Below, piece by piece: positions 5,496 through 28,540 of a stretch of 64,000 nucleotides of DNA. Every line of letters begins with the position of its first letter. Positions within the stretch are counted from its first letter, which is position 1. The notes beneath the pieces were generated by a model. That model ran no database searches, was not told the DNA's origin, and was given only the letters and a program-made list of their open reading frames with translations. Both the position numbers and the translations under genes were made by a program. The stretch comes from Atractiella rhizophila (taxonomy: Eukaryota), in NCBI GenBank assembly GCA_021432655.1, contig MU271427.1:1-64000 (forward strand), read 5' to 3'.

Positions 5496-7137
5496 TGTTG
5501 GATTTTGCAGTCTAGTTTCGTGCCACTCAGTGGCAAAGTCCTTTAGTTTTCTGGAATGTTCTACTATTTTCTAGTTGCCACTGCTGTAAGCTATATAAAA
5601 CACATAGAATTCCATTTCCTGGTGCTCATGCGTTTGCAAGAGCTCAGCCAAACGTAACCAAGTCGTACTTAGCTCCGCTCCTCAGCCCGTCGATTTACAA
5701 CACAAACGCATCCGGTTAGACCACCGTCACCAGTCCAGAAGAGCGGATCTGTACGACCCACGCGCCACCCATGTCGACCCACACTGTTGGAATTCATTCA
5801 CTCATCCGCGAAATTCCAAAGCTCGATGGAACGAACTATGCAGACTGGAAATTTGCTGTTACCCTCGTCCTGAAGAAATGCAATTGCTGGGATATCCTTA
5901 CAAGCACGACAGATGGTGTCCAGACAAGGACTGCATCCGATGAAACAAAGAGACAGCTTGAAGACTCACTTACAATAATTGGACTCAGCCTCGATCCGTC
6001 ACAGTTCATGTATGTTCGAAGCAGCACTACTGGTCCAGAAGCATGGAAAGCCCTGAAGGAGAAGTATGAGAAATCCTCAAAAGCGAACAGAATCACCTTG
6101 AAACGCGCATTTTACACGACAAAGCATGATTTCAGCGCCCCCATTGAACAATTCATCTCCCACGTCCTTGAATCAGCATCAAAAATGAAATCAATCGGCC
6201 TAACCCTGTCAGACCAAGATATTACAGATGTCCTGACATTCAACCTTGCAGAAACATGGGGAAGCCTCGCCAGCACGCTCATGGCCACGAAAGGGGAGCA
6301 GACAATTGATGAAGTCGTTTCAGCACTCAGGGATGAAGAGAGGAGAAGAGGTGGAATACCAGGAGAGATAGAGATAGCTGCAATGGCTAGAGCAGCGCCT
6401 AAATGGGGAAGGAAGGAACAACAGAGGGAGAATAGTCGAAGATTTGAACGATATTCAGAATCCCAGAATAACGGTACCTCACGAGCTTGTTGGATATGTG
6501 GCAATCCCACTCACATTGCTCGAGATTGCGACAGAAAAAGCAAAGCCACAGGAGAGTACACACCTAGCTATCAATGAAGCCTTGATAGATGCAGCTTTTT
6601 TAAAAAGAAGAAAAGAAGATTGAGGGGAGTAATAGTTGAATGGTCTCAAGATCCGGTGAAATTTGGCGAATGGAGGGCCGTGTATCATCTTCAGGCGTAG
6701 GAAGAAGATCTTTCATCGTTGGTGAAGCATCATGGGACAGCTATGACCTCGTATTGATGTGCCTTGAAGCTGGCAGAAGCAAGAAATCGGCGGAAGTTTT
6801 GATGAGTATTAAAGTTTGAGATCCCCTTGTTGAGAATTGAATTGACTCTTGTTTACCTTTCAAAATGACCTTATCGATTAACTTTACTTTCTATTGATTA
6901 CCTCGTGGCACTCCACAAGCCTGGGCGGAAGTGTTGGATTTTGCAGTCTAGTTTCGTGCCACTCAGTGGCAAAGTCCTTTAGTTTTCTGGAATGTTCTAC
7001 TATTTTCTAGTTGCCACTGCTGTAAGCTATATAAACACATAGAATTCCATTTCCTGGTGCTCATGCGTTTGCAAGAGCTCAGCCAAACGTAACCAAGTCG
7101 TACTTAGCTCCGCTCCTCAGCCCGTCGATTTACAACA
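5496..7137 (+). mobile_element. Non-autonomous gag-only LTR retrotransposon (1642 bp, Copia-type Gag)
   Basis: LTRs 5496-5702 and 6932-7137 (TGTTG...CAACA) are near-identical, with one 1-nt indel seen. TSD GGATG at 5491-5495 and 7138-7142; the paralogous site near 21965 has a single GGATG. Purine-rich GGGCGGAAG precedes the 3' LTR. No pol. Confidence 0.93.
5771..6577 (+). CDS. gag: Copia-type Gag (UBN2-like) with CCHC zinc knuckle, 268 aa, intact
   Basis: IPKLDGTNYADWKF N-terminus; AWKALKEKYEK motif; knuckle CWICGNPTHIARDC. Confidence 0.9.
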   Translation: MSTHTVGIHSLIREIPKLDGTNYADWKFAVTLVLKKCNCWDILTSTTDGVQTRTASDETKRQLEDSLTIIGLSLDPSQFMYVRSSTTGPEAWKALKEKYEKSSKANRITLKRAFYTTKHDFSAPIEQFISHVLESASKMKSIGLTLSDQDITDVLTFNLAETWGSLASTLMATKGEQTIDEVVSALRDEERRRGGIPGEIEIAAMARAAPKWGRKEQQRENSRRFERYSESQNNGTSRACWICGNPTHIARDCDRKSKATGEYTPSYQ

Positions 7138-7949
7138 GGATGGAACTGCCTGTATATGATACAGGTGATTACGCTTTCGACCGCATATGCGTCCTCGCGC
7201 TCAGGATCTCCGACGTAACGAACGCGGAATCGTGGGTCGTTTTGACCAAGATGGTACAGACGATGAAATTTGCTATTGAGGTATATGAGTGCGTTTTCTT
7301 AACATTTGTTCAGAATCGATTACAGAGACTACATAGGTGGGAGATGGCCCGGCCGCGAGACCAGAAGGCCAAGCGGCAGATGTTCAATCGATCCAGGGCC
7401 CACCAACATCTACTTAAGGTAATGGATAATCTGGACCTTCGATGGAAAGAAAAGAGGAATACCGAATTGAAACTAATTCAAGACTTTCAGATGTTTGAAT
7501 CAACTTTTGTTCTAGGCCCAAGACTATATCAAGCCTGTAGACAATGTGCGTTTACCATTTGGTTTTGCAGGACTGCAACTGATAGCACCGAGTTTCACCT
7601 CATATCCTGCTCATTTTCAGTATGGAGCCATCAAGCATCAAATCAATAGGAGATTTGGGACAAAACTCATGGATGCAGGTGCAGCATGCCATTGCTCACC
7701 CCAACCTATACAACAGTGACTTCGGTACCTACAAGGATGGCTGTACTTATGATTCTGGTAACAATCGTAATCGTCATACCTTGCACCGAACTACTTATAC
7801 ATTCACAGCTTTCATAGCTAATGGTCAACTCGACAAAAAAACGTGATACAACATCACCGATTCGAGAAATGCTTAATGGCTTGAAATTGCATGACACCAC
7901 CGTGTGCACGCCTTTGTCACAATCAGATCATAATCACAAAGCAACCAAA

Positions 7950-9644
7950 TGCCGGGACTGTAAAATGGTTTCTGGCAGCTGAGTTCGTCCTGATTTTGCT
8001 TCTTCCTCGCGGATTTGCTCCATGAGCAGCTTTGCTTTTGTTGAAATCCAACCAGCGGAAGCCATGCGATCAAAATATGCAGATATCCAGCGATACTTTT
8101 AGTTTGTAGTCATCAGTGCAGTGTTTCTGGTTAGAGACGACATACATCTTGTGGGTTTGAAGCTTCCAACCCTGCAAAAAGCAAGCACCAAGGGAAGATA
8201 TGATGTGAAGGGTCTTCGCCTGATTGAGCGATTGTCACTCCAATTGTTACGATTTCGGAGCCGTAATGACTTTCGGGTCGACAGTGGATAATTCGGGTAA
8301 GGTAAATGATGAGAGAATTGACAAAAACAGATTTGTACAGGAGATTGAGCAGGTCAGGGCTAAAGTTGACGAAAATGGCCGGAATGCCATCAATGCAATA
8401 CGACAGACGAAAATCATGGCCGCCATCCAGTTGCTCCTTGAAAGAAATTATGCGTTGAAGGATCACCCTGCCTCCTTCAATAGCTGTGTCAAATTGCTCC
8501 GTAATAGCAAGAGAGCTTCGAAAGGCCTACAGTTCATGGTCCAGCGTTGACACCTGAGCAGCAAATTGATAGAGCCTACACCGCAGCTCTTGTATCCACG
8601 TTGAATAAATAGAAAGAGGGCTCACCGTAGCCAGTCCACATACATGGAAGGAAGGGCCACACTAAGGTTATCTCCAAGGGAAGGACCGAAAGTCGACTCC
8701 AGAAGCCAATGCAAGAACTTTGGCACTCGGGCTCCAAAGGAAGAGGAAGTAAAGCAAATTCGAGCGAGAATGATAGCACAGGATTGTGCGGTAGAGGGTA
8801 AACTCGCGAAGGTCTGGTTGGTAGAGGTCACTGCTTCTCGTGCCATGTCGAAGATGAGGTCCATCGTTTGTGAAGTTGTCCCGTGACTGACCTCCCATAG
8901 TGCGTAAACAAGCAAGGTAGCAAGAATAATGTCGACTCTGGGGTGGACAGCAGAGCTGTCCCAAGGATACTCGAGAAGCATCGTGGACCTTTGATGTTTA
9001 GAATGGGCGATAGTAAGGAGATCCGGTCGGTCAATTTGTCTGCTCAGATGGAGCGCGGCATAAGCCATGAGGCCTATCCCAAAGTTGAGGCAAGACAGTA
9101 ACGGTGTTAAACTTTCTCTCACCTTCATAGAGTGGCGCAGAAAAGAGGGATTTTAGGAACAAATCGAGTAAAAAGTTCGGCTGTTGGGGCTCAATGGCTT
9201 TGGATGTTGGCGCCAGTACTTCCACAAAGTGTCGGATGAAACTTTCGTCCTGCAACGATAACTGGATGGGCCGTTGCGGAGGGAATGTAGTTCGTTGCTT
9301 GAGAATTTCCAATTTGGATTGATTCAAGGACGACGGTGTGCCTGATGTGATTTCCGGTTGGTTAATTGGTGGAGGCGTAATCGAGGAACGTTCGGCTTTG
9401 GGCGTCCTCCTGCTTAGAGCTCTAGAGGGCATTGCTCGGAATGATGAGAGATACTGGGGTTGTGTTTGCGATGTGGTTTGAGAATTCTGTTCAGGAGATG
9501 GGTGAGAAGGGGTCGTGGGATAAGAATCCAACGGTTGGTCCTGAACAGTGTGATGTGCTGCTATATGGTCTTTTGCGTAGACACAGTTGAGGTACAGCCG
9601 TCCGCAATTAGCACACACAGGCTGCTCCTCGCCACATTTCACAC
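7950..9644 (-). CDS. Zn(II)2Cys6 transcription factor with fungal-specific C-terminal domain; 5' end cut by the gap, possibly degenerate
   Basis: VKCGEEQPVCANCGRLYLNCVY gives the last four Cys of a GAL4-type cluster, followed by a Ser/Pro linker and helical segments (ILATLLVYALWEVSHG; 8131-8466 frame). Exon structure and 3' end are approximate. Confidence 0.8.
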
Positions 9645-9669
9645 NNNNNNNNNNNNNNNNNNNNNNNNN
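9645..9669. other. Assembly gap (25 N)
   Basis: Run of 25 n. Confidence 1.
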
Positions 9670-9855
9670 GAGTTTTTTCTCGGAGAACGAGCATCGAGAT
9701 GACGACTTGATTTTCTGCACAAAGGATACTTCATTAACAACTTACCTATTAACTCTGGGAATTACTCCATAAGGCCCATATGGTTTGGGGACTGTTAGGC
9801 TCCATCCGTGTTTTAGTGCGCTACAATTTCTAGATACATTTTAAAGTTGGAATCC

Positions 9856-9882
9856 ACAATTCAAAGACCCATGGTGTATCAT
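9856..9882. repeat. Second TIR plus TA of the pogo element, displaced inside the reversed block
   Basis: The complement of 9856-9882 is TGTTAAGTTTCTGGGTACCACATAGTA, identical to 16359-16385. After reversal it becomes the inverted partner at about 12868-12894. Confidence 0.9.
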
Positions 9883-10561
9883 CCAGCAAGAGAAAAGCAT
9901 AGAGTGTGAGAGTGGTTGTTTGATGGAAACTCTTGGCTAGCACAAGGAACTAAGATGTACACGACCGTTAATCTCAGCGTATGCGTATTCATTGCTCAAA
10001 GTGTTGGTAAGTCTACAACTTTCAGATCGTGAAACAGCCTCCCACCCCGCCACGTCTCCTTCCCTTCCACGCGACGCTGGCAGAGGTCCTCAGTCCTCTG
10101 GCGGCGCAAGTTTAGAACGAGCGGTGAACAGCGTTTAATTAAGCTTTGGAACACGTTTAACTAAATAATTCGTCGCCTGTGGCATTACTCCGGCTCTACG
10201 CTTTCGCACGCTTGCCCGGCCGTAGATCGACTTGGAACTGACTTGGTACCGTGTACACGCAGTAGTATCTCGGCTCTTGTCCTTACGCTGGACTATGAAT
10301 CTTGGTCATGCAATGAAAAGACATTTCACATTTCGACATGTCTCTCCATGACGCACTTCCTTACGCGAGCGCGTCAGAGCCGGAGCCGGCGAGGCGGACG
10401 GAGCGGAAATGTCGAAAACGGGGAAAGTTTTTAGCTGCTGCTGAACTAGACATTTCTCATAGCGGGAATTTTTTACCTCGAGCAAGCTGCCGTGGGAGGG
10501 AAAGGGTGAGAGGAGAATGTAGGTTTGGTGGACGTGGTGGGAGGAAGCAATTAAAGTTCGG

Positions 10562-11669
10562 TACTCAGCGTTGGTCTGACTTACCGAGAGCCTACGTACC
10601 GACCTCGTCCTACGAGGGTCAAACTAGGCACTACGTCTGGAGTAGTTCCACACAGGGAAAAGGAGAGGGGGAAAACGGAACGGGAAATGAGACTACGATT
10701 ACTTGAAAATGTCGAGGAGGTACGCGAGGGAGAACTCGTCGCTTGCTTGCAGAAGCGAAAGATGGAACGGAGGGAGCTATTGCCGCGGCGTGTAAGGTGC
10801 AGGGTTAGTGGAGGGAGAAGGTGGGAGAGGAGGGGCCAGTTCCACTTCGTTCTCCTACTCCCTTTCCTCGCACAGCAGTAACTGGATCTTCGAGGCAAGG
10901 GCTACGTCAAGGGATGCGTCAAGCGGTTGCTCGTACTCCTACAGTTTGGTAGGGAGCGACAACTCTGCCTAGGGAACCTTTCACTACTCCTCCTCCGGCC
11001 AAAGAACTCCCTCCTTTAGTTGCCCTTCTCTACAGGAAAAGCTTTATCACACCCAGGAGGCACACCTCCTCCAAAATCAATACTTCGCTAAACCCGGCCA
11101 TACAAAAAAGGAAGTACATTCCTCCTATCCTTGCCTTCGACTCTCGCTACTTCCCCGTGGGGTTCGTCGTGAGAGACGAAGTGTCGTTGTCGGTAAAGTA
11201 CCCGACGCTCTTGATGAGACTGGAGCTGGGGGGAATGAGCGTGTACAAGTGAGCATAAGGGCGAGTGTAGCTGGACTTCTCCGAACCTGCCGTGAACCTA
11301 GTTGACGGCTTCCGAGAGTGGAAGAATCCACTCAAAGAAAAGAAAAGAAAGTTCAGTTGTAGACGACTATAAGTATGTCCCAGAAGTAGTAACTTTCCCT
11401 TCCCATTTCGACGTGGCTGGTGGAGGCGAGCGATATGGGGCATGGGAGGGAGGTCGCCGTCCAGGAGGTCGTCCCGGAGGTGGAGACGGAGGTGGTAGGG
11501 TAGGAGTAGATCGAGAGGATGGGAGTCGTCGGGAAGATAATCGGCGAGCTGGTTCGCATGGGCTGTACCTCGTTGATGCCATTTCCTTTCCGACCTTCGT
11601 GAACTTCTCTCTAAATAACCGTACCTGCTCTTTAACTGAGACGACAATCTATGGTACCATCTTTTTATT
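10562..11669. CDS. Hidden 4-exon gene of unknown function, readable only as the left-to-right complement
   Basis: ATG at 10562 (MSRNQTEWLSDAWLEQDAPSLIRDADLIK). Intron 10649-10713 GTGTGT..GCTAAT..CAG; intron from 11099 GTATGT..GCTGAG..AAG (frame needs a 1-nt indel in a G run or another acceptor); intron 11329-11379 GTGAGT..GCTGAT..CAG. Ends VKERLEALEERFIGMDEKLTLLLDTMVEK, TAA at 11667-11669. Confidence 0.8.
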
Positions 11670-12168
11670 ATCTGAGAAATTAGTATTACAATAAACAAAG
11701 AACTAATGGACGAACCTCTATTGCTCTCTTAACCACTTAACACAGGGTTTCAATACCAGGTCTCTTTCAATTCCGTAGGCGTTATGATTTTGAATTTTGA
11801 TTCACATTTTTGAGACGTTGCAGCGTGTACTAAAAACGTAATGTCTTAAGGCTTTCTCAAATTGTCGGTAAGTTAACCTAACTTAACTTTCCTCACACTA
11901 GAGTTCTACCTGTTTTCTGGTCTAAGTTGTCCACACGCGGAGAGTAAACCCTTTACAACCCCGCCATAAGTAAAAAGACACTAATGTCTTGAAGGACAAG
12001 TTTAAGGAGTTGTAAATAACTTACGGAACCTCGGTCTGTGGGGGTCCTGTACACTCGTGTTTGTATTTAGTACTTTCGGCCGACTTTAACTAACGTCACA
12101 GATGGAGACAGATGAAAGGCTTACGTTATTTTAGGATAATATGGAGCGAGTTGTTGGGGAGGGGGGTT

Positions 12169-12875
12169 TACAGTTTGCTCCGGACCTAGTATAGAGGGGG
12201 GTCGCTGTTTAGTTTGGGCTTCGGTAGGGTTTAAGGAGCTGAGAATCGAGCTTCTTGACGTGGACGGGGGCGACGGTACCGTTCGAATTGGTCATAACGG
12301 CGAGGGAGGAGGTCGCCGTGTGTTTTAATCAGTTCGTAATCCTGGCAGCCAGTAGTAGCTACCTCAACTAGACCGACGGGTTCGACTAGTGGATCGTCGA
12401 CGTTTAGGTGGGAGCATAGGAGGAGGACCAGACAGATAGAATCTGGGGTACCCGCGGAGAGAAACAGCTAATGTCAGTTATGTGACCAAAGCTGGCGATG
12501 GAGAAGCCTTTCCTAAACCTGGAACTCCGCAAGTTTTCTTGGTTCCTGCTTTTTAGGGACCCGTGGCCTAAGATAGTACACCGGTTGTCAGAAACGGCTA
12601 GTCACCAGTACTAACACCACCATTTTCCACTACACACCGGTATAGACGGGTAGCTGTTACCCTCCTGCGGAACCCAAGTACAAACATGACTTTTCTTCTG
12701 CCTGAGTTTCCCTTTCGCCATACTCCAATCACTACTACACTCAAATGCCCAAAGATCGTATAACGTAACACAACTTTCTGAGTGTGCGTAGGTAGGTGTT
12801 AAATGCCATCCTTGCTCAAATGGTCGCGATGACTCTTGATGACAATCGCGCACTTTCCTGATCAAGCGAAATTGA
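12169..12875. pseudogene. Second hidden, frameshifted ORF in the reversed block
   Basis: Complement read gives MSNEAWIISPPSDK...; WAPLFVDYSQYTGFDRYLFGKDLDLEAFKR...GRTPWVHVCTEKKTDSKGKRYEVSDD, then a GTGAGT...TAG intron (about 12738-12810). Two frameshifts and one internal TGA. Confidence 0.5.
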
Positions 12876-13080
12876 TTGAAGACCAACACAACCTTTAAAC
12901 TGGGTTTATCCTTGGTTTATCAATGATTAAAATAGTATTATAAAGGTATAAGTACTTGGCTTCCGATATTAAAGCAAATTAACGAGAAATTAGGTCCCTT
13001 CCTTTGCACCTGCTGCCAGCTGCCTTACTTGCCTCTGTTGCTCCTCGTGCATATTTTGTTGGGTTTTGAAGCTAGTTCTG

Positions 13081-15906
13081 GAGAGGATTGTCAATTGGAT
13101 CAATAGTATAATGATATTGAGGTGCCAGGAGACTGGGCCTTTGCTGTTGAGGGTGTGGGATTGATAGAACCTGTGAGTGTAGATCCTGAATCGATTCGGT
13201 GCGGTGATGTGGCAGGAATGGGCGTTTTGGGGTGGGGAGTGATGCGTCAACCTCGACTCGTGACATTGGCCGCTTTCGTGAGGTATTCGATGCAAAAATA
13301 TGGTCTGAAGGATCAGGTTATGTCACTGCTCTCAGTTTGTCTTAACACTCTGTTAGTATCAAATGTAACGTACTAAATAGATCCATGCATTGGTTGAGAC
13401 TCTCCCATTGTATTGTATGAATGGATTGTAGTTGTTCTGTGGCTAATTGGTCACTGAAAACAGGATTGTGTCCCATGAATGACAGATTTTGGGGTTGCCC
13501 AGAGTGTAGTTGTGGAAAGCTTGCTGGAATTGACTGCTGAGGTCCGAAGAAAAGAGAAGGGAGGCTGGAGGTTGAGGGGACCGCTTCCGTTGTATGAGGT
13601 GATGATGGCTGCTGCACTAATTGTTAGCAAGGAGCGGAGGAAGAGATAAAGTAATCGGAATGGTGAATTACGGGGAGATGTAGTCTATTAGTACCTCCAC
13701 CTCTTTTGCGTGGAGGTTTGTTCTTCTCAGCTTCCTCCTTCTCCCTCCGCTTCATTTCCCTCATATTTGCCTTCACTTTTTTCTCTTGTTCCTTCTCCTC
13801 TTTCTTCTTAGCAGTCTCTGCTCTCTTTCTTGCAGTCTCCACTTTCTTGCATGCTTCCCCGGCTGTTTTTTCTTCAGCTGCTTGCTCATTCTCCAACATC
13901 TTCTCATAGGCTTCTACACCACTCAACAACCGTGCTGTCGTCGTCAATTCTGTTTTCTTTCCCGGTTTCTTCTTTGACTCCAGGGCATTTCGCAACTGTC
14001 CATTCTCCCTTGTCAGCATCTCCACTGACGCTCTTAGTGCCCCTTCTCGATGTTGATCTTCACTCCGCACTGTATCCATTGCGGACAAGGCACGAAATAA
14101 CAACATCGATGGGCTTTTGGCAGAGCCGTGGATCCTCTGCCCCTCTCGATTGTGGAAGATGGTTAGTGGCTTCTTTGGATAGAAGTGATTTGGGTTGATC
14201 GGAGTATGCAGGGTCACCGTTAGAGCGTCGGATGAAGGGAGTCTCATCGGAATGGGGAGAACCGGAGCAGAAGAAGATGTGGAGATGTCTTGTTCTAGTG
14301 GAAGTTGAGCAGCCTGTAACTGTGTCGAATTAAGCGTCAGAGGAGGCACCTCTTCCATGCGTAGAAGGCAGGTTTCGGCATCAATGAGCTGAAAGCCCTC
14401 CTCAATTGTTGGAGGTTCCCCAGAATCTGAGAGAGAGTCATTGAAGTCGTCGTCAGAGAGTGGGTCAGAGCTGTTAGCGAGGGGGTCTTCTAAATGAGCG
14501 CTTTCGGCGAGGTCAGGAGGAATACAGTTGGGTAGCTGAGTGTGTGTTGAAGTCTGCCTTGCCTGTGCAAAATCAGCCTCCGTAAAATGGTCCCGATCCA
14601 CAAAGGTGATTCCTGAGTAATCATACACCGTCAGGCCTGTAGCTGCCCATGCACTGACAATTGTTGTGGGCTTCATTCATTCCGCCCAGCATATTAGGTA
14701 CCTCATAATGAGGTTCTTCTTGGAAATATCAAACCCATCCTCCAGCATATCATCAGTGACCTTACTCCAAGCTTTACCAACCGGTCCGAAAACTCCAACA
14801 TCTAATGGCTGGAGTTTGTGTGTGGTATGAGGAGGGAGGCAAATGATGTGAACAATGTTGCGGAGGTAATCCCAGACATAACGGATGATGAGAGCAGAAG
14901 CATGAGAACCGTGGCCATCAACAATGAGGAGAGCTGGACGTGTCGGATCGGGCCGCTTTTGGATGTAAGGGACATAAATTGATATGAACCACAGATAGCC
15001 CAAAACCTCATCTGTCCATCCATTTTTGGAGAGGGCAGTGCTAAGATCAGTCATATAAGTAAAAGAAAAGGTTTTCAGATTGAAAAGGACAGACAAGATC
15101 TCTTTTCTTTGATCATCCGATAGCCCACTCAACCAACTCTTCTGGAATCGTTTTCCTGAGAAGATAAAAAGAGGTGGGAGAGAGCTGCCACTCGCAGTAA
15201 CACATTCGATAAGGGTTACCAGTTCAAGCTTGTCTGACTTTGCTCGATAAATGGCTCTTCTCTCAGCAGGCCCAATTACGCGACGGACTCCTATCTTCCG
15301 GCCGCCTCCCAGCTGCAAACCCTTCTCATCCATATTTGCCACATCATCCCATAAAATTCCGTATTTTCTCATGGCCCCCTCAAGAAGATCAAAATAGGAG
15401 TGGACATTTGTCCGATTGAAAGCTTTTGCACGCTTGGGATCCAAAGGATTTGCTTTGAAACTCCGAATCTCTGTTCCATGCCGCTTCATGAAACGATAAT
15501 ACCAGCCTTTCCCTGGCGGCCTCCCCACAATCTTCTTCACAACCAGGTATAAACCCCTCCTATGAAGAGGAAGCCCTGAATCTCCAACCCACCGAATCCA
15601 GCTCACCAGTCCTGCTGCCTCGCCTTTACTCAACAAGCGCTGATGTTGATGACTTTCTACCCGGTTTAACCCTCCAAGACACCGGTACCTAAGAGTACCA
15701 TAATTCATGAAGGTAAAACCTCCATTTCCATTTGGATAGGAATACCGTGAAGCAAGTTCTCTATAGGAAATGGCGCACTGTGGGTCCTTGGTTCTCTCGG
15801 CCTCTTCTTGGAGCTTCCAATAAATCTCCACTGCTTCCACAAAGTCCTTCTCCCTTTTAGCCAACACCTCTTTTTTACTAAGGTCCTTCTTCTTCTTTGG
15901 TGGCAT
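13081..15906 (-). pseudogene. pogo/Fot1-type (CENP-B HTH + DDE_1) transposase with a long C-terminal extension
   Basis: Starts MPPKKKKDL at 15906. Motifs NMDEKG, LLIVDGHGSH, LPPHTTHKLQPLDVGVF. An in-frame TGA at 14677-14679 separates ORFs 14677-15975 and 13624-14676; a Lys/Glu-rich coil and intron-split tail follow. Confidence 0.9.
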
Positions 15907-16358
15907 TCGGAGGAGGGCTGGAGCTGTGGGGACACGTTGGAAGTTGCGTTGGTAAGGACGTGTCGACTCAAGCACGTGACCAGAAAAGCATGTGGAATTG
16001 CTGACTTGAACCTTAAATTGCGGATTTTGCGCAACATGCTAACAAGGGGGCACCAGACTTTAACAAGTGGTCTCTCATCAAGTTGTAGGCTGATCTGAGC
16101 AAAACTTAGACAGTGGAATAACTAGATGTTTCTCTTGTTTATTCCCAAAAAAAATCACAGTAATCAGATATCCTTACTGAGAAATACATAAATTCATTAC
16201 TGCTATATTTTCGAAGATATCTCAAAGGGAGTTCCACCAATTTTGTTGCTGAATAGAGAGGAAATATGCGCACATGCAAGGAGATTCTGAATCCAAATTT
16301 TCTAAGGGATCGAATTTGATTTGGGCGACTTTATTATATGGTGTTAAAGATCTGGGTA

Positions 16359-16385
16359 TGTTAAGTTTCTGGGTACCACATAGTA
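16359..16385 (-). repeat. pogo element terminal inverted repeat (25 bp) plus TA target
   Basis: Minus strand reads TA-CTATGTGGTACCCAGAAACTTAACA upstream of the transposase. Sub-terminal TGTTAAAGATCT occurs near both ends. Confidence 0.88.
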
Positions 16386-16740
16386 CATTCACAAGTTCCA
16401 TCCACAGCCATACTGGACGTACGTGGCAGAGCAGGGATTCCAAATAGTCTTCACACGTATCTTGGGCGACGCATAGCTGTACTCTCAAGCTGCGTATGAG
16501 GAAGCAGCAAAAATAGCTTGTGACGAGCTCCCGAACGTGATTCCCAATTGACGATCATAAGCCTTTGTCTCCTTGCTCTTGACAAAAGCTACCACGCCGA
16601 CCCTTGATTCATTTAGATTGCATCTATCTAACCTACAGAAGCGCTGACGAAATTGGTCTTAGAAGCCATTTGACTTCACAAACTTTTCTTCATCCTTCAG
16701 GCACCTCCAGCCTTGTAGTTCAATTTCTCACTTTATCTAC

Positions 16741-17045
16741 ATGTCGAAAAATCTGGTCAAGGTCTTTAAAGTCTCCGAAAATATCAAGAAGGCGAATCCG
16801 TTAGGATTGTGGGTTCTTTGCATCGACAATGGTGGCATCCGCTCCTTTTCCACTCCATACATGCTTGAACAGATAACCCTTCAAGCCAGTCACCTTCTCA
16901 AAGTGCCAGAAGACGAAGATCTCCGTCCCTGCGATATTTTTGATCTTATCTGTGGGACTTCCACAAGCGGATGGATCGCACTTATGCTCGGGAGGCTGGG
17001 AATGACTGTTCGTCAGTGCATTGCGGCGTATGAAGAGATCGGACG
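16741..17045 (+). pseudogene. Patatin-like phospholipase, N-terminal fragment
   Basis: VLCIDNGGIR (DGGGxR-like), RPCDIFDLICGTSTSGWIALMLGRLGMTV. Similarity stops near 17045. Confidence 0.85.
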
Positions 17046-17728
17046 AGAGGCGACAATCGCTCGGACAGAAAAGGGATCGGATGCGAGGGAAGGACCCCTA
17101 GGTGTCACAGAACAGGTATCCAACGTGAGGGAGGGTTGTGCATCTCCTCCAGGGTTGGCATCCAAAGGGTGGGAAGAAGGTGTATCGTCCCCAAAAAAGG
17201 CTTCGAAACTGCAAGGCATGATTCGGTGGTTCCGGTACATTTCACCTCACAGTCTGGTACAAACTAATCTTCCGTTGCAGTCAGTAGATAGGCGAGCGCC
17301 TCACCGTTCTATGTCTCTTTCAATCAGCGGAGAGGCTCAGCGCTGCAAAGTAGAAAAGCCTTAGTTGGTCTTGGATTCGGTGTGTAAGGAGCAATATATC
17401 AAGTTATATCCCACCTGCTCTGCAGGTGTTGTTTTCTCAGGGCTTTTCAGTGGAATCTTTTTGGTATATGTTGACTTGAACAATGCAACTCGCACTTTTT
17501 GTTTAGCCACCAGAAGGCCGCTGGCTGAAAGTGGTTTTGCGCTTCAGTTTTGAGAACATTTACACAGGACCCCCGATAATTTGAAGACGAGGAAGCATGG
17601 GAGAAGAGAGCCATAGAGGAAGAGTATGGCTGCCCATTTACCCCTCGGGGATCTGCTAGTTCAACAACCTATGTGGCATTACACTTGGTCACGGAAGAAA
17701 CCTCTTAGCAGAGTTCGCAAAAGAAGGT

Positions 17729-17760
17729 ATACTGTACCCTCAGATCTGAGGGTACAGTAT
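17729..17760. repeat. Perfect 32-bp palindrome
   Basis: ATACTGTACCCTCAGA-TCTGAGGGTACAGTAT; extends to 17725-17764 with one mismatch. Confidence 0.95.
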
Positions 17761-17939
17761 GCCTGTGCAACCCCTTTCCTAACTTACAAGTGTGTCCGTG
17801 CCCTCATCCCTTTAGGGTCATTCTACCCTCATTCAGGACCCAGGTGTAGGCCTAGCGGGGGTAGTTCCCGAACTGAGCCGTTTTAGACAGTTTAGTACGT
17901 GCCTATTTTGGACACATAAGTGTGTCTGCGGCCTTCGTC

Positions 17940-18100
17940 CCTAAGGCGGGCTATCTTCACCACGACATCAGCGACAGTAATATAGCTTTAAGCTTTCCAG
18001 ATAAAGGAGGGCCTGTGCGGTTTATTGCAAGATTTGATTTCGCCATAAAGCCATCTGGAAAAAGGGACCGTGGCCAACGAAGAACGGCGCAGCATTCGAT
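17940..18100 (+). pseudogene. Fungal FunK1-type protein kinase fragment
   Basis: GYLHHDISDSNI...RFIARFDFAI resembles the LHRDISxxN...LIDFDxA motifs. Confidence 0.55.
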
Positions 18101-27200: not shown

Positions 27201-28389
27201 TCGCCTATATTACTGGCGGCAAGTCCGCGAATTGTCTGTCATCAAAAACAAACAAAGGTGTGCTCTGGCACCTCCTTTCAGTTTTAAAATTTTATTGTGG
27301 GAGACAAGAGTGATTGAAGGCAGAAATCTGTCAAGGGAGGATGGATTGGATACATATGAGGCAGACAGGATTCAAAATTAATACCGAGTGAAGAGGAAGT
27401 CTTAACTCCAATACTCAATAAGCGTTGATTGTTGGTTCGGAGCCTTACTTATGTCATCAGTGCCATTTGTGGGCTGGAGGAGAACTAGCCTTGGGTCTCA
27501 GTAGCAAACTTGCGGCCAGTCTGTACACGGAGTGCCATCTCCACAAAGTTAGGTTCAGTGGAAGTCTGGCGTACCACCTCTGTTTCGAAATCTGGAGCCT
27601 AGAAGAAGAAAAGCATATGTTGTGCTGAATCCTATTGTTGGGGCTCCCGATTGATCCATTGTCGTGAGATGACGAGCTCCATGCTCGTGCTTGGGTGATG
27701 ACGGCAAGATGCCTGCTGAGGGTTGAGATTGAGCTTCATTGGTTAAAACAAGGCAAATCAATACTTGCCCAATTATATACGTCTTCGAGATGAAAATGGG
27801 AACTAGCCCCATGTGAGTCAGGTCTCGATCAAAGGACGCGACGTACTTGCAAAATGATAGGCCGTATCCGGTGAAGCCAAGAAGAGGATGAGTTCAAGGA
27901 TTTGAATGAATGATGTGAGCACGTTGGCTCCGACGCCAAATTGGATTAACTGCTTCAGCGATATTTGCACTTCCTACACTACAATAACCAAGCAAGAAAC
28001 CTACACGCAATATCAGGTCTGTCGTTGCCTGAAGTTATATCAGCGCGGACAGACATGGGTAGAAGGAGACCGACAGAGAAGTCGGAGCTGCTCAGATGCT
28101 TCTTGAAAGCCAGCGTGAAAAAGAGTGCAAAAAGGCAGTCGACAACGGCGGATCCACCAGGCTGCACCGAAGCACCCGTTTCCATCTCACCAAAGTGATT
28201 TCGAAAACCATCCCAATAAGTCTCATTTTTTGTTACCTTTAGGACAAATTTGGGACCTCCTCCAAAAACTCACAAAACCTCCCAAACTCCCAAAACGAAG
28301 TTGACAGGGCCTCAACTCGGGGTTAAGGTTCTAGCTTCAGAAGAGTCAGCTTGACACAAACCCCTAGGGGGAGAGTACTCTTTCGTCTT

Positions 28390-28540
28390 TAGGGATGGCT
28401 ATCGTACCGTATCGTCGTCTCAGCACCACTTCCGGACGGTACGTGTCCCTGTCTCGGCTCGTATCGTACCGTAACAAATTTCCATTGTCAGATACGTACG
28501 AGTACGGCGGAAAACGGGAGAATACGACGGATTACGGGTT
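28390..28540 (+). mobile_element. hAT-like terminus with sub-terminal repeats
   Basis: Begins TAGGGATGGC, followed by clustered TCGTAC/CGTA/TACG motifs. Confidence 0.5.

Follow-up and report, generated by a model that had tools for sequence, protein, structure and literature searches.

The DNA analyzed here is a stretch of 64,000 nucleotides from Atractiella rhizophila (contig MU271427.1, positions 1 to 64,000 of the forward strand; hereafter, the window), and the question it raises is whether the sequence directly to the right of its one assembly gap reads in the direction in which the fungus carries it. A first-pass annotation, made from the letters alone, had claimed that a kilobase-scale block adjoining a 25-N spacer is reversed without being complemented. 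The spacer is where that annotation placed it, and three independent tests, based on composition, a transposon terminus and a mirrored gene, support the claim of reversal. We conclude that about 3.1 kb next to the gap is very probably genuine fungal DNA that entered the record reversed and uncomplemented (Table 1).

Table 1 Features around the gap, in positions of the window
Feature	Positions	Strand	Remarks
Zn2Cys6 transcription-factor gene, 5' end cut by the gap, first exon missing	7937-9644	-	tblastn
25-N spacer	9645-9669	.	Only N run in the window
Mirror-image block	9670-12794	.	Very probably real DNA, letters reversed without complementing
Missing transposon terminus	9823-9882	.	Readable in the complement only
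Predicted spliced gene	10562-11669	. (would be minus after repair)	Complement reading only
Transposon body and right end	12795-16385	-	Correct as given; DDE_1, public contigs
Right transposon terminus	16342-16385	+	Two terminal-motif copies, final TA

Reversing a sequence swaps CA+TG with AC+GT, GA+TC with AG+CT, AT with TA, and GC with CG, while the ratios of these pairs (CA+TG/AC+GT, GA+TC/AG+CT, AT/TA and GC/CG, in this order hereafter) are left unchanged by reverse-complementing. In the block the ratios are 0.77, 0.95, 0.68 and 0.80, all four close to the reciprocals of those in the remaining 60,851 nt of the window (1.33, 1.10, 1.56 and 1.27). Among 19 chunks of the same size used as controls, the minima of the first three ratios were 1.11, 1.03 and 1.33, and GC/CG ranged from 0.90 to 1.97, with the block's value only narrowly outside that range. 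A k=4 reversal score, computed leave-one-out in 500-nt windows, averaged +39.9 (sd 19.7) in 120 control windows, two of which were negative (-17.2 and -6.9). Across 10001-13000, the six windows scored -13.9, -44.0, -25.4, -34.1, -58.6 and -20.3, five of them lower than every control. Because the sign of this score flips exactly on reversal, these values are those expected of mirrored real DNA, and from 10000 to 12794 the reversal-sensitive statistics run opposite to those elsewhere in the window.

The first 330 nt of the block (9670-9999) have a k=4 score of +13.8, with z(real) -0.9 and z(mirrored) +2.7. Part of this unmirrored composition comes from the transposon terminus described below, which alone scores +8.9 despite being certainly in mirror form; 9670-9822 and 9883-9999, where the composition test is ambiguous, were assigned to the block by position only. 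Two further measures were close to neutral: codon-usage log-odds were 39 as given and 41 mirrored, from a model trained on only 4,993 codons, and a loose intron-pattern count was non-discriminating in the controls (1.45 per kb real, 1.6 per kb mirrored).

The second line of evidence comes from the transposon to the right of the block. Its DDE_1 domain (PF03184) was recognized on the minus strand at 14680-16038 (E 1.2e-16; 61.2 bits, cut-off 22), in a reading frame that runs from 16038 to 13072. Stops interrupt this frame at 14677-14679, 13624-13626 and 13342-13344, with at least one more within 13318-13341, indicating that the copy is degenerate. The first-pass annotation had taken the complement of 9856-9882 for the terminal inverted repeat that this element lacks, and the two agree: the complement equals 16359-16385 at 27/27 positions. 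In a BLAST search of the complemented block against the remaining window, this 27-nt terminus was the sole significant match (E 2e-7), the block as given reaching a best E of 7.8; tblastx of the block against the remaining window, in either reading, found nothing below E 0.02 except the terminus. Gapped alignment adds a second subterminal motif and raises the score to 58, compared with 15-19 for the other three readings and a maximum of 25 in 200 shuffles. Window-wide, the motif TGTTAAR..TCT is confined to 16342 and 16359 on the plus strand and, in the complement reading, to 9823 and 9856; the minus strand and the reverse reading of the whole window have none.

When the block alone is reversed, the 27-nt termini become inverted, with TA at both ends. 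The element then resembles pogo/Fot1-type fungal DDE_1 transposons in its domain, its short terminal inverted repeats and its TA ends. It differs from them in its length (about 3.8 kb), in a frame of about 990 codons broken by stops and, as deposited, in the absence of one end. The TA at the ends may belong to the repeat or may be the duplicated target site. A metagenome scan for a 24-nt piece of the terminus gave no matches, and neither did a search with the 81-aa transposon tail against 1.84 billion representative proteins, made to check the proposed continuation of the tail ORF. No longer proteins were found for the tail among 48 candidates, nor for a 350-aa segment among 8,000 candidates scored, a search that was probably crowded by a K/E-rich stretch.

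The third line is the gene with canonical introns that the first-pass annotation had read in the complement of the block. Under a strict splice rule (GT[AG][ATG]GT...[CT]AG, introns of 45-85 nt), the complement reading holds a 320-codon ORF, from ATG to stop, at exactly the interval proposed, with two introns at 10649-10713 and 11050-11129; an alternative second intron, read by hand at 11099-11169 (GTATGT...CAG), also preserves the frame. The same rules applied to the strands as given yielded at most 122 and 98 codons. Control chunks reached a maximum of 182 codons when mirrored (n=16) and 116-496 codons when real. The ORF and splice statistics thus predict a real gene in the block, legible in its complement.

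The block ends earlier than first proposed. The first-pass annotation had set its limits at 9670 and 13080, and the left limit, at the gap, is kept; on the right, the cumulative k=4 score drops from 9935 and reaches its minimum at 12800. The last 330 nt before 12795 (12465-12794) are mirrored (z(real) -3.7, z(mirrored) 0.0), and 12795-13080 is normal in composition (z(real) -0.1, z(mirrored) +3.3). Public contigs cover this last interval as given. One of them, X1 record 3, matches 12795-12992 with 1 letter different and then runs 99 letters past 12795 in a sequence unlike the window; another, X3 record 19, matches 13042-13237, bridging 13080/13081 with 39 letters to the left and 157 to the right. 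The right boundary of the block is about 12794/12795, ~286 nt short of 13080. Reads that align along the block as given and span 13080/13081 had been named as evidence against an artefact; the spanning was found, in one public contig, and it shifts the boundary without making genuine sequence of the block as given.

Left of the gap, tblastn with the Atractiella rhizophila protein P0001, which carries PF00172 and PF11951, covers 9642 down to 7937 and is 98% identical to the window over a 173-aa exon. The intervals 8096-8145 and 9073-9121 are absent from public contigs, which are spliced there. The window exon aligns with Zn_clus positions 12-34 only; at 19.6 bits it misses the cut-off of 21, the domain being truncated and its first cysteines lying in the gap. 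One X3 contig extends 27 letters past 9644. Manual translation of these letters on the minus strand yields GCLTCRQRR, the start of a zinc cluster, in the same frame as VKCGEE. At least this much is therefore concealed by the gap, and about 36 codons more if P0001 is taken as the guide. The N-termini of four related Atractiella rhizophila proteins (P0001-P0004) were absent from every reading of the block in tblastn. The expected first exon turned up beside the gap in none of the readings, which means that over 25 nt must be hidden there and that the gap side lends no support to the placement of the block.

The best public runs share 0.43 of sampled words with the window, and no RNA runs sharing window words were listed. 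At sites where all four runs agree with one another, their mismatch to the window is still about 1-2% (for example, at 8941 and 9278), and for this reason they are not the window's own reads. None of the four gives cover in bins 9853-12705; a hole in cover proves nothing and the runs are not from the window's strain, and so this is not counted as evidence.

Most likely, the true plus strand would read from the gap through bases 12794 down to 9670 and then from 12795 onward. Reversal in place would give the DDE_1 transposon its inverted terminus and complete it at about 3.8 kb (3591 + 213 nt), and it would leave the 320-codon gene lying between the zinc-cluster gene and the transposon, all three in the same orientation. 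It is this transposon geometry that suggests that the block belongs beside 12795.

The best surviving alternative, which we consider distinctly improbable, is a different repair, in which the block would be complemented where it stands, 9856-9882 then being the right end of a second copy lying in the gap, or would be a piece from elsewhere. The composition and ORF tests are blind to the difference between reversal and complementation, only the geometry of the transposon places the block beside 12795, and the absence of the zinc-cluster first exon beside the gap is compatible with such a repair. However, it requires a second copy concealed in the gap and leaves one element lacking its left end, whereas an element repaired by reversal in place is complete, its termini properly inverted, each end carrying TA and the tail measuring 213 nt, and the 99 letters that X1 record 3 adds beyond 12795 are what a continuing element would be expected to give. 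The word depth of that contig (1024, against 234 and 379 for two flanking-gene contigs) is a weak hint only in the same direction, as contig depth gives no copy number.

Reversal in place with the original right limit is less probable still, and we give it very little credence. In that model, the whole of 9670-13080 is mirrored, the transposon ORF runs on past the 13081/9670 join, and a Zn2Cys6 start lies in the complement of 13026-13080. The frame does stay open for 21 more codons after the 13081/9670 junction, an RSR tripeptide does fall next to the gap, and the gap does conceal a GC..C zinc-cluster start. Yet 21 stop-free codons arise by chance about 1 time in 3, (61/64)^21, a stop codon interrupts the proposed start, and P0001-P0004, whose N-termini appear in no block reading, begin quite differently, with SRSKK or TACAP before GC. 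With the composition of 12795-13080 normal and public contigs fitting there as given, one of them across 13080/13081, both the continued ORF and the zinc-cluster start depend on a wrong junction and are coincidences.

That the sequence is correct as given, through a chance complement match or a genuine in vivo mirror copy, has a negligible probability, since nothing positive speaks for it beyond as-given ORFs of up to 193 aa (a Pfam search at E up to 0.01 assigned no family to the two longest in the block, of 193 and 101 aa, which is weak evidence), and against it stand the terminus match at E 2e-7 with its second motif, three of four dinucleotide ratios far outside the 19 controls (GC/CG narrowly, 0.80 vs 0.90), and the antiparallel arrangement of DNA strands, which no known process writes backwards uncomplemented. 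To our knowledge, neither replication nor repair nor recombination reverses a sequence without complementing it, the strands being antiparallel, and a true in vivo mirror copy is highly improbable.

A genuine biological inversion was also considered and rejected. An inversion produces a reverse complement, which leaves ordinary inverted repeats at its edges; for this reason, it fails here, where the composition is mirrored, as is impossible for a true inversion, and where self-BLAST of 12795-16385 showed that the window as given carries the terminus nowhere as a reverse complement.

The mirrored block, to be read from 12794 down to 9670, is an artefact of processing and not biology. In this the first-pass annotation was right, and the stage it blamed, gap extension or later processing, is still the one we infer. 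The block is equivalent to minus-strand sequence that had been complemented but never reversed, an error whose source is software, and the likeliest faulty step would be one that lengthened the contig ending at 12795 into a scaffold gap without closing it.

The case resembles orientation misassembly at scaffold gaps, in which software places a piece in the wrong direction and so disrupts the genes and repeats at its edges. Ordinary misorientation, in contrast, is a reverse complement, readable by six-frame translation and BLAST, whereas the block here is reversed only and is noise to standard tools. Our literature search returned no description of reversed but uncomplemented assembly blocks or of such a bug, the phrase matches concerning synthetic regulatory DNA. 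The PBJelly suite, a long-read gap filler, has a default minimum gap size of 25 (PMC6240028) and extends into gaps from their flanks without closing them, which gives overfilled gaps (PMC9635638). The locus is similar in that sequence was apparently added to a flank and the gap left open, with a spacer of 25 N. It differs in that a reversed, uncomplemented fill appears in neither paper, as far as the portions consulted of PMC6240028 and PMC9635638 go. This assembly may be linked to PBJelly, as the shared size of 25 and the open gap could suggest. It is conceivable, if somewhat doubtful, that the block is one case of a systematic bug, in which event mirror-form fill may adjoin 25-N gaps at many other places in this assembly, and perhaps also in other products of the same pipeline.

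The mirrored block itself has no biological meaning, and its importance lies in database quality control. BLAST, six-frame translation and gene callers are all blind to about 3.1 kb of real sequence; in the record, the transposon looks truncated and a predicted gene of ~320 codons is lost, and the neighboring zinc-cluster gene has lost its first exon to the gap. The four-ratio dinucleotide test, in which the ratios flip to their reciprocals, flags mirrored blocks without reads and can be applied assembly-wide. If the error were systematic, genes and transposon ends would have been silently removed from public records.

The stretch at 9670–12794 of this window of fungal DNA is a real mirror-image artefact, reversed but not complemented, which is statistically very clear and somewhat smaller than the 9670–13080 claimed in the first-pass annotation. 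In double-stranded DNA a word and its reverse complement occur about equally often, which does not hold for a word and its unmodified reversal; reversing exchanges CA+TG with AC+GT, GA+TC with AG+CT, AT with TA, and GC with CG. All four dinucleotide ratios of the block were approximately the reciprocals of those in the rest of the window, with GC/CG setting the block apart only narrowly because the controls spread widely (0.90–1.97).

Dinucleotide ratios of the block, with the rest of the window (60,851 nt) as reference and control minima from 19 chunks
Ratio	Rest of window	Block 9670–12794	Control minimum
CA+TG / AC+GT	1.33	0.77	1.11
GA+TC / AG+CT	1.10	0.95	1.03
AT / TA	1.56	0.68	1.33
GC / CG	1.27	0.80	0.90

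Longer words were compared with a reversal score, log f(word)/f(reversed word) at k=4, whose sign inverts exactly upon reversal of the sequence and which was trained leave-one-out with 120 control windows of 500 nt. The six 500-nt windows of 10001–13000 scored −13.9, −44.0, −25.4, −34.1, −58.6, and −20.3, against a control mean of +39.9 (sd 19.7; 2/120 negative), and scores with k=3, 5, and 6 agreed with this pattern. Further runs of negative windows were not found elsewhere in the 64 kb. The two negative controls, 17501–18000 (−17.2) and 28001–28500 (−6.9), are isolated and short, and we therefore read them as noise, not as more mirrored pieces.

A gene search in the block gave the same picture. 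Under strict splice rules (GT[AG][ATG]GT...[CT]AG, introns of 45–85 nt, at most two introns), we reproduced the coordinates of the gene that the first-pass annotation had placed in the complement reading (bases complemented, still read left to right), whereas the longest ORFs on the as-given strands were 122 and 98 codons. Because 16 control chunks yielded 116–496 codons in their real form and 43–182 when mirrored, the block is mirrored-like as given and real-like once un-mirrored.

Predicted coding features of the block and its flanks
Feature	Position	Strand or reading	Evidence
Retroelement fragment, left of the zinc-cluster gene	5720–6577	plus	285-aa ORF; gag domain of copia-type LTR retrotransposons (PF14223, E 5.9e-26); DUF4219 and zinc knuckle matched weakly, each under cut-off
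Predicted spliced gene	10562–11669	complement reading	320-codon ATG-to-stop ORF, strict splice rules
DDE_1 transposase	14680–16038	minus	PF03184, E 1.2e-16
ORF immediately right of transposon end	16663–17364	plus	233 aa; weak match to patatin-like phospholipase PF01734, E 4.5e-05, 24.2 bits (cut-off 27.7)

The transposase frame runs from 16038 down to 13072 on the minus strand in a single phase (~990 codons), broken by in-frame stops at 14677–14679, 13624–13626, and 13342–13344 and at least one more in 13318–13341; the copy is probably inactive, although these stops could also be located in introns. No inverted partner of the right transposon end, 16359–16385, was found in the window as given, but the complement of 9856–9882, read left to right, equals this end at 27/27 positions. 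Compared with the remainder of the window, the complemented block had the transposon terminus as its single significant match (E 2e-7); the best E value for the block as given was 7.8. In a gapped alignment the similarity also took in another, subterminal TGTTAAR..TCT motif; the score was 58 in the complement reading, 15–19 in the three remaining readings and no higher than 25 across 200 shuffled sequences. Counted over the whole window, this motif is present twice on the plus strand (16342, 16359) and twice in the complement reading (9823, 9856); neither the minus strand nor the reverse reading (reversed without complementing) has a copy.

The right limit of 13080/13081 proposed earlier was wrong. 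The cumulative reversal score bottoms out at 12800, 12465–12794 is mirrored-like (z against real −3.7), and 12795–13080 is real-like (z against real −0.1, against mirrored +3.3). Contigs from public sequencing runs agree: record 3 of run X1 matches 12795–12992 with one differing letter, followed by 99 letters unlike the window, and record 19 of run X3 matches 13042–13237, spanning 13080/13081 with 39 letters on one side and 157 on the other. The suggestion that the transposon ORF continues across 13081/9670 therefore falls, and the as-given frame stops two codons past 13080/13081, at 13072–13074. At many positions in 7000–9644 and 12795–16500, the four public runs share one letter unlike the window (e.g., 8941 G>A, 8983 G>A, 9278 G>T); since they agree with each other against it, they are not the window's own reads, and the window represents another strain, another haplotype or a near-identical duplicate relative to those runs.

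At the left, the composition of 9670–9999 is ambiguous (k=4 score +13.8; z against mirrored +2.7). The terminus at 9823–9882 scores +8.9 despite its certain mirror form, so its sequence is atypical; from position only, we infer that 9670–9822 and 9883–9999 are mirrored too. The window's single N run (9645–9669, 25 letters) separates the block from a zinc-cluster (Zn2Cys6) gene 98% identical over 173 aa to P0001, a related A. rhizophila protein. This gene does lack its start, as first noted, and 27 letters of an X3 contig past the gap edge encode GCLTCRQRR, in frame with VKCGEE (hand-read). The start proposed at the complement of 13026–13080 is not tenable: that stretch is correct as given and contains a stop codon, and P0001 and its relatives P0002–P0004 start quite differently, with N-termini absent from every reading of the block. 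In the genome from which P0001 and P0002 come, at least two closely similar copies of the gene sit on separate contigs (300,625 and 85,302 bases), and P0002 looks like P0001 minus several internal stretches; the copies could be allelic, could stem from a recent duplication or could reflect gene models that differ.

Reversing 9670–12794 in place, the most likely repair, would turn the terminus into a properly inverted one, 213 nt past 12795. The element would then measure 3591 + 213 nt and carry TA at each end, and the 320-codon gene would be a minus-strand gene lying between it and the zinc-cluster gene. It is improbable that the block should instead be complemented in place, for which the gap would have to conceal a second element, or that it is a misplaced piece. 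The error stems from strand handling in software. Because the block has the 25-N spacer at one edge and an apparent former contig end at the other, the faulty step would fit an extension that ran into a gap without closing it, and the error may also have entered in later processing. A passage in PMC6240028 gives 25 as the default minimum gap size of the PBJelly suite, and one in PMC9635638 describes PBJelly extending into gaps without closing them; spacer size and gap extension would make this program a candidate. A literature search found no published account of a reversed-not-complemented bug. The mirror-image block is not a biological feature.
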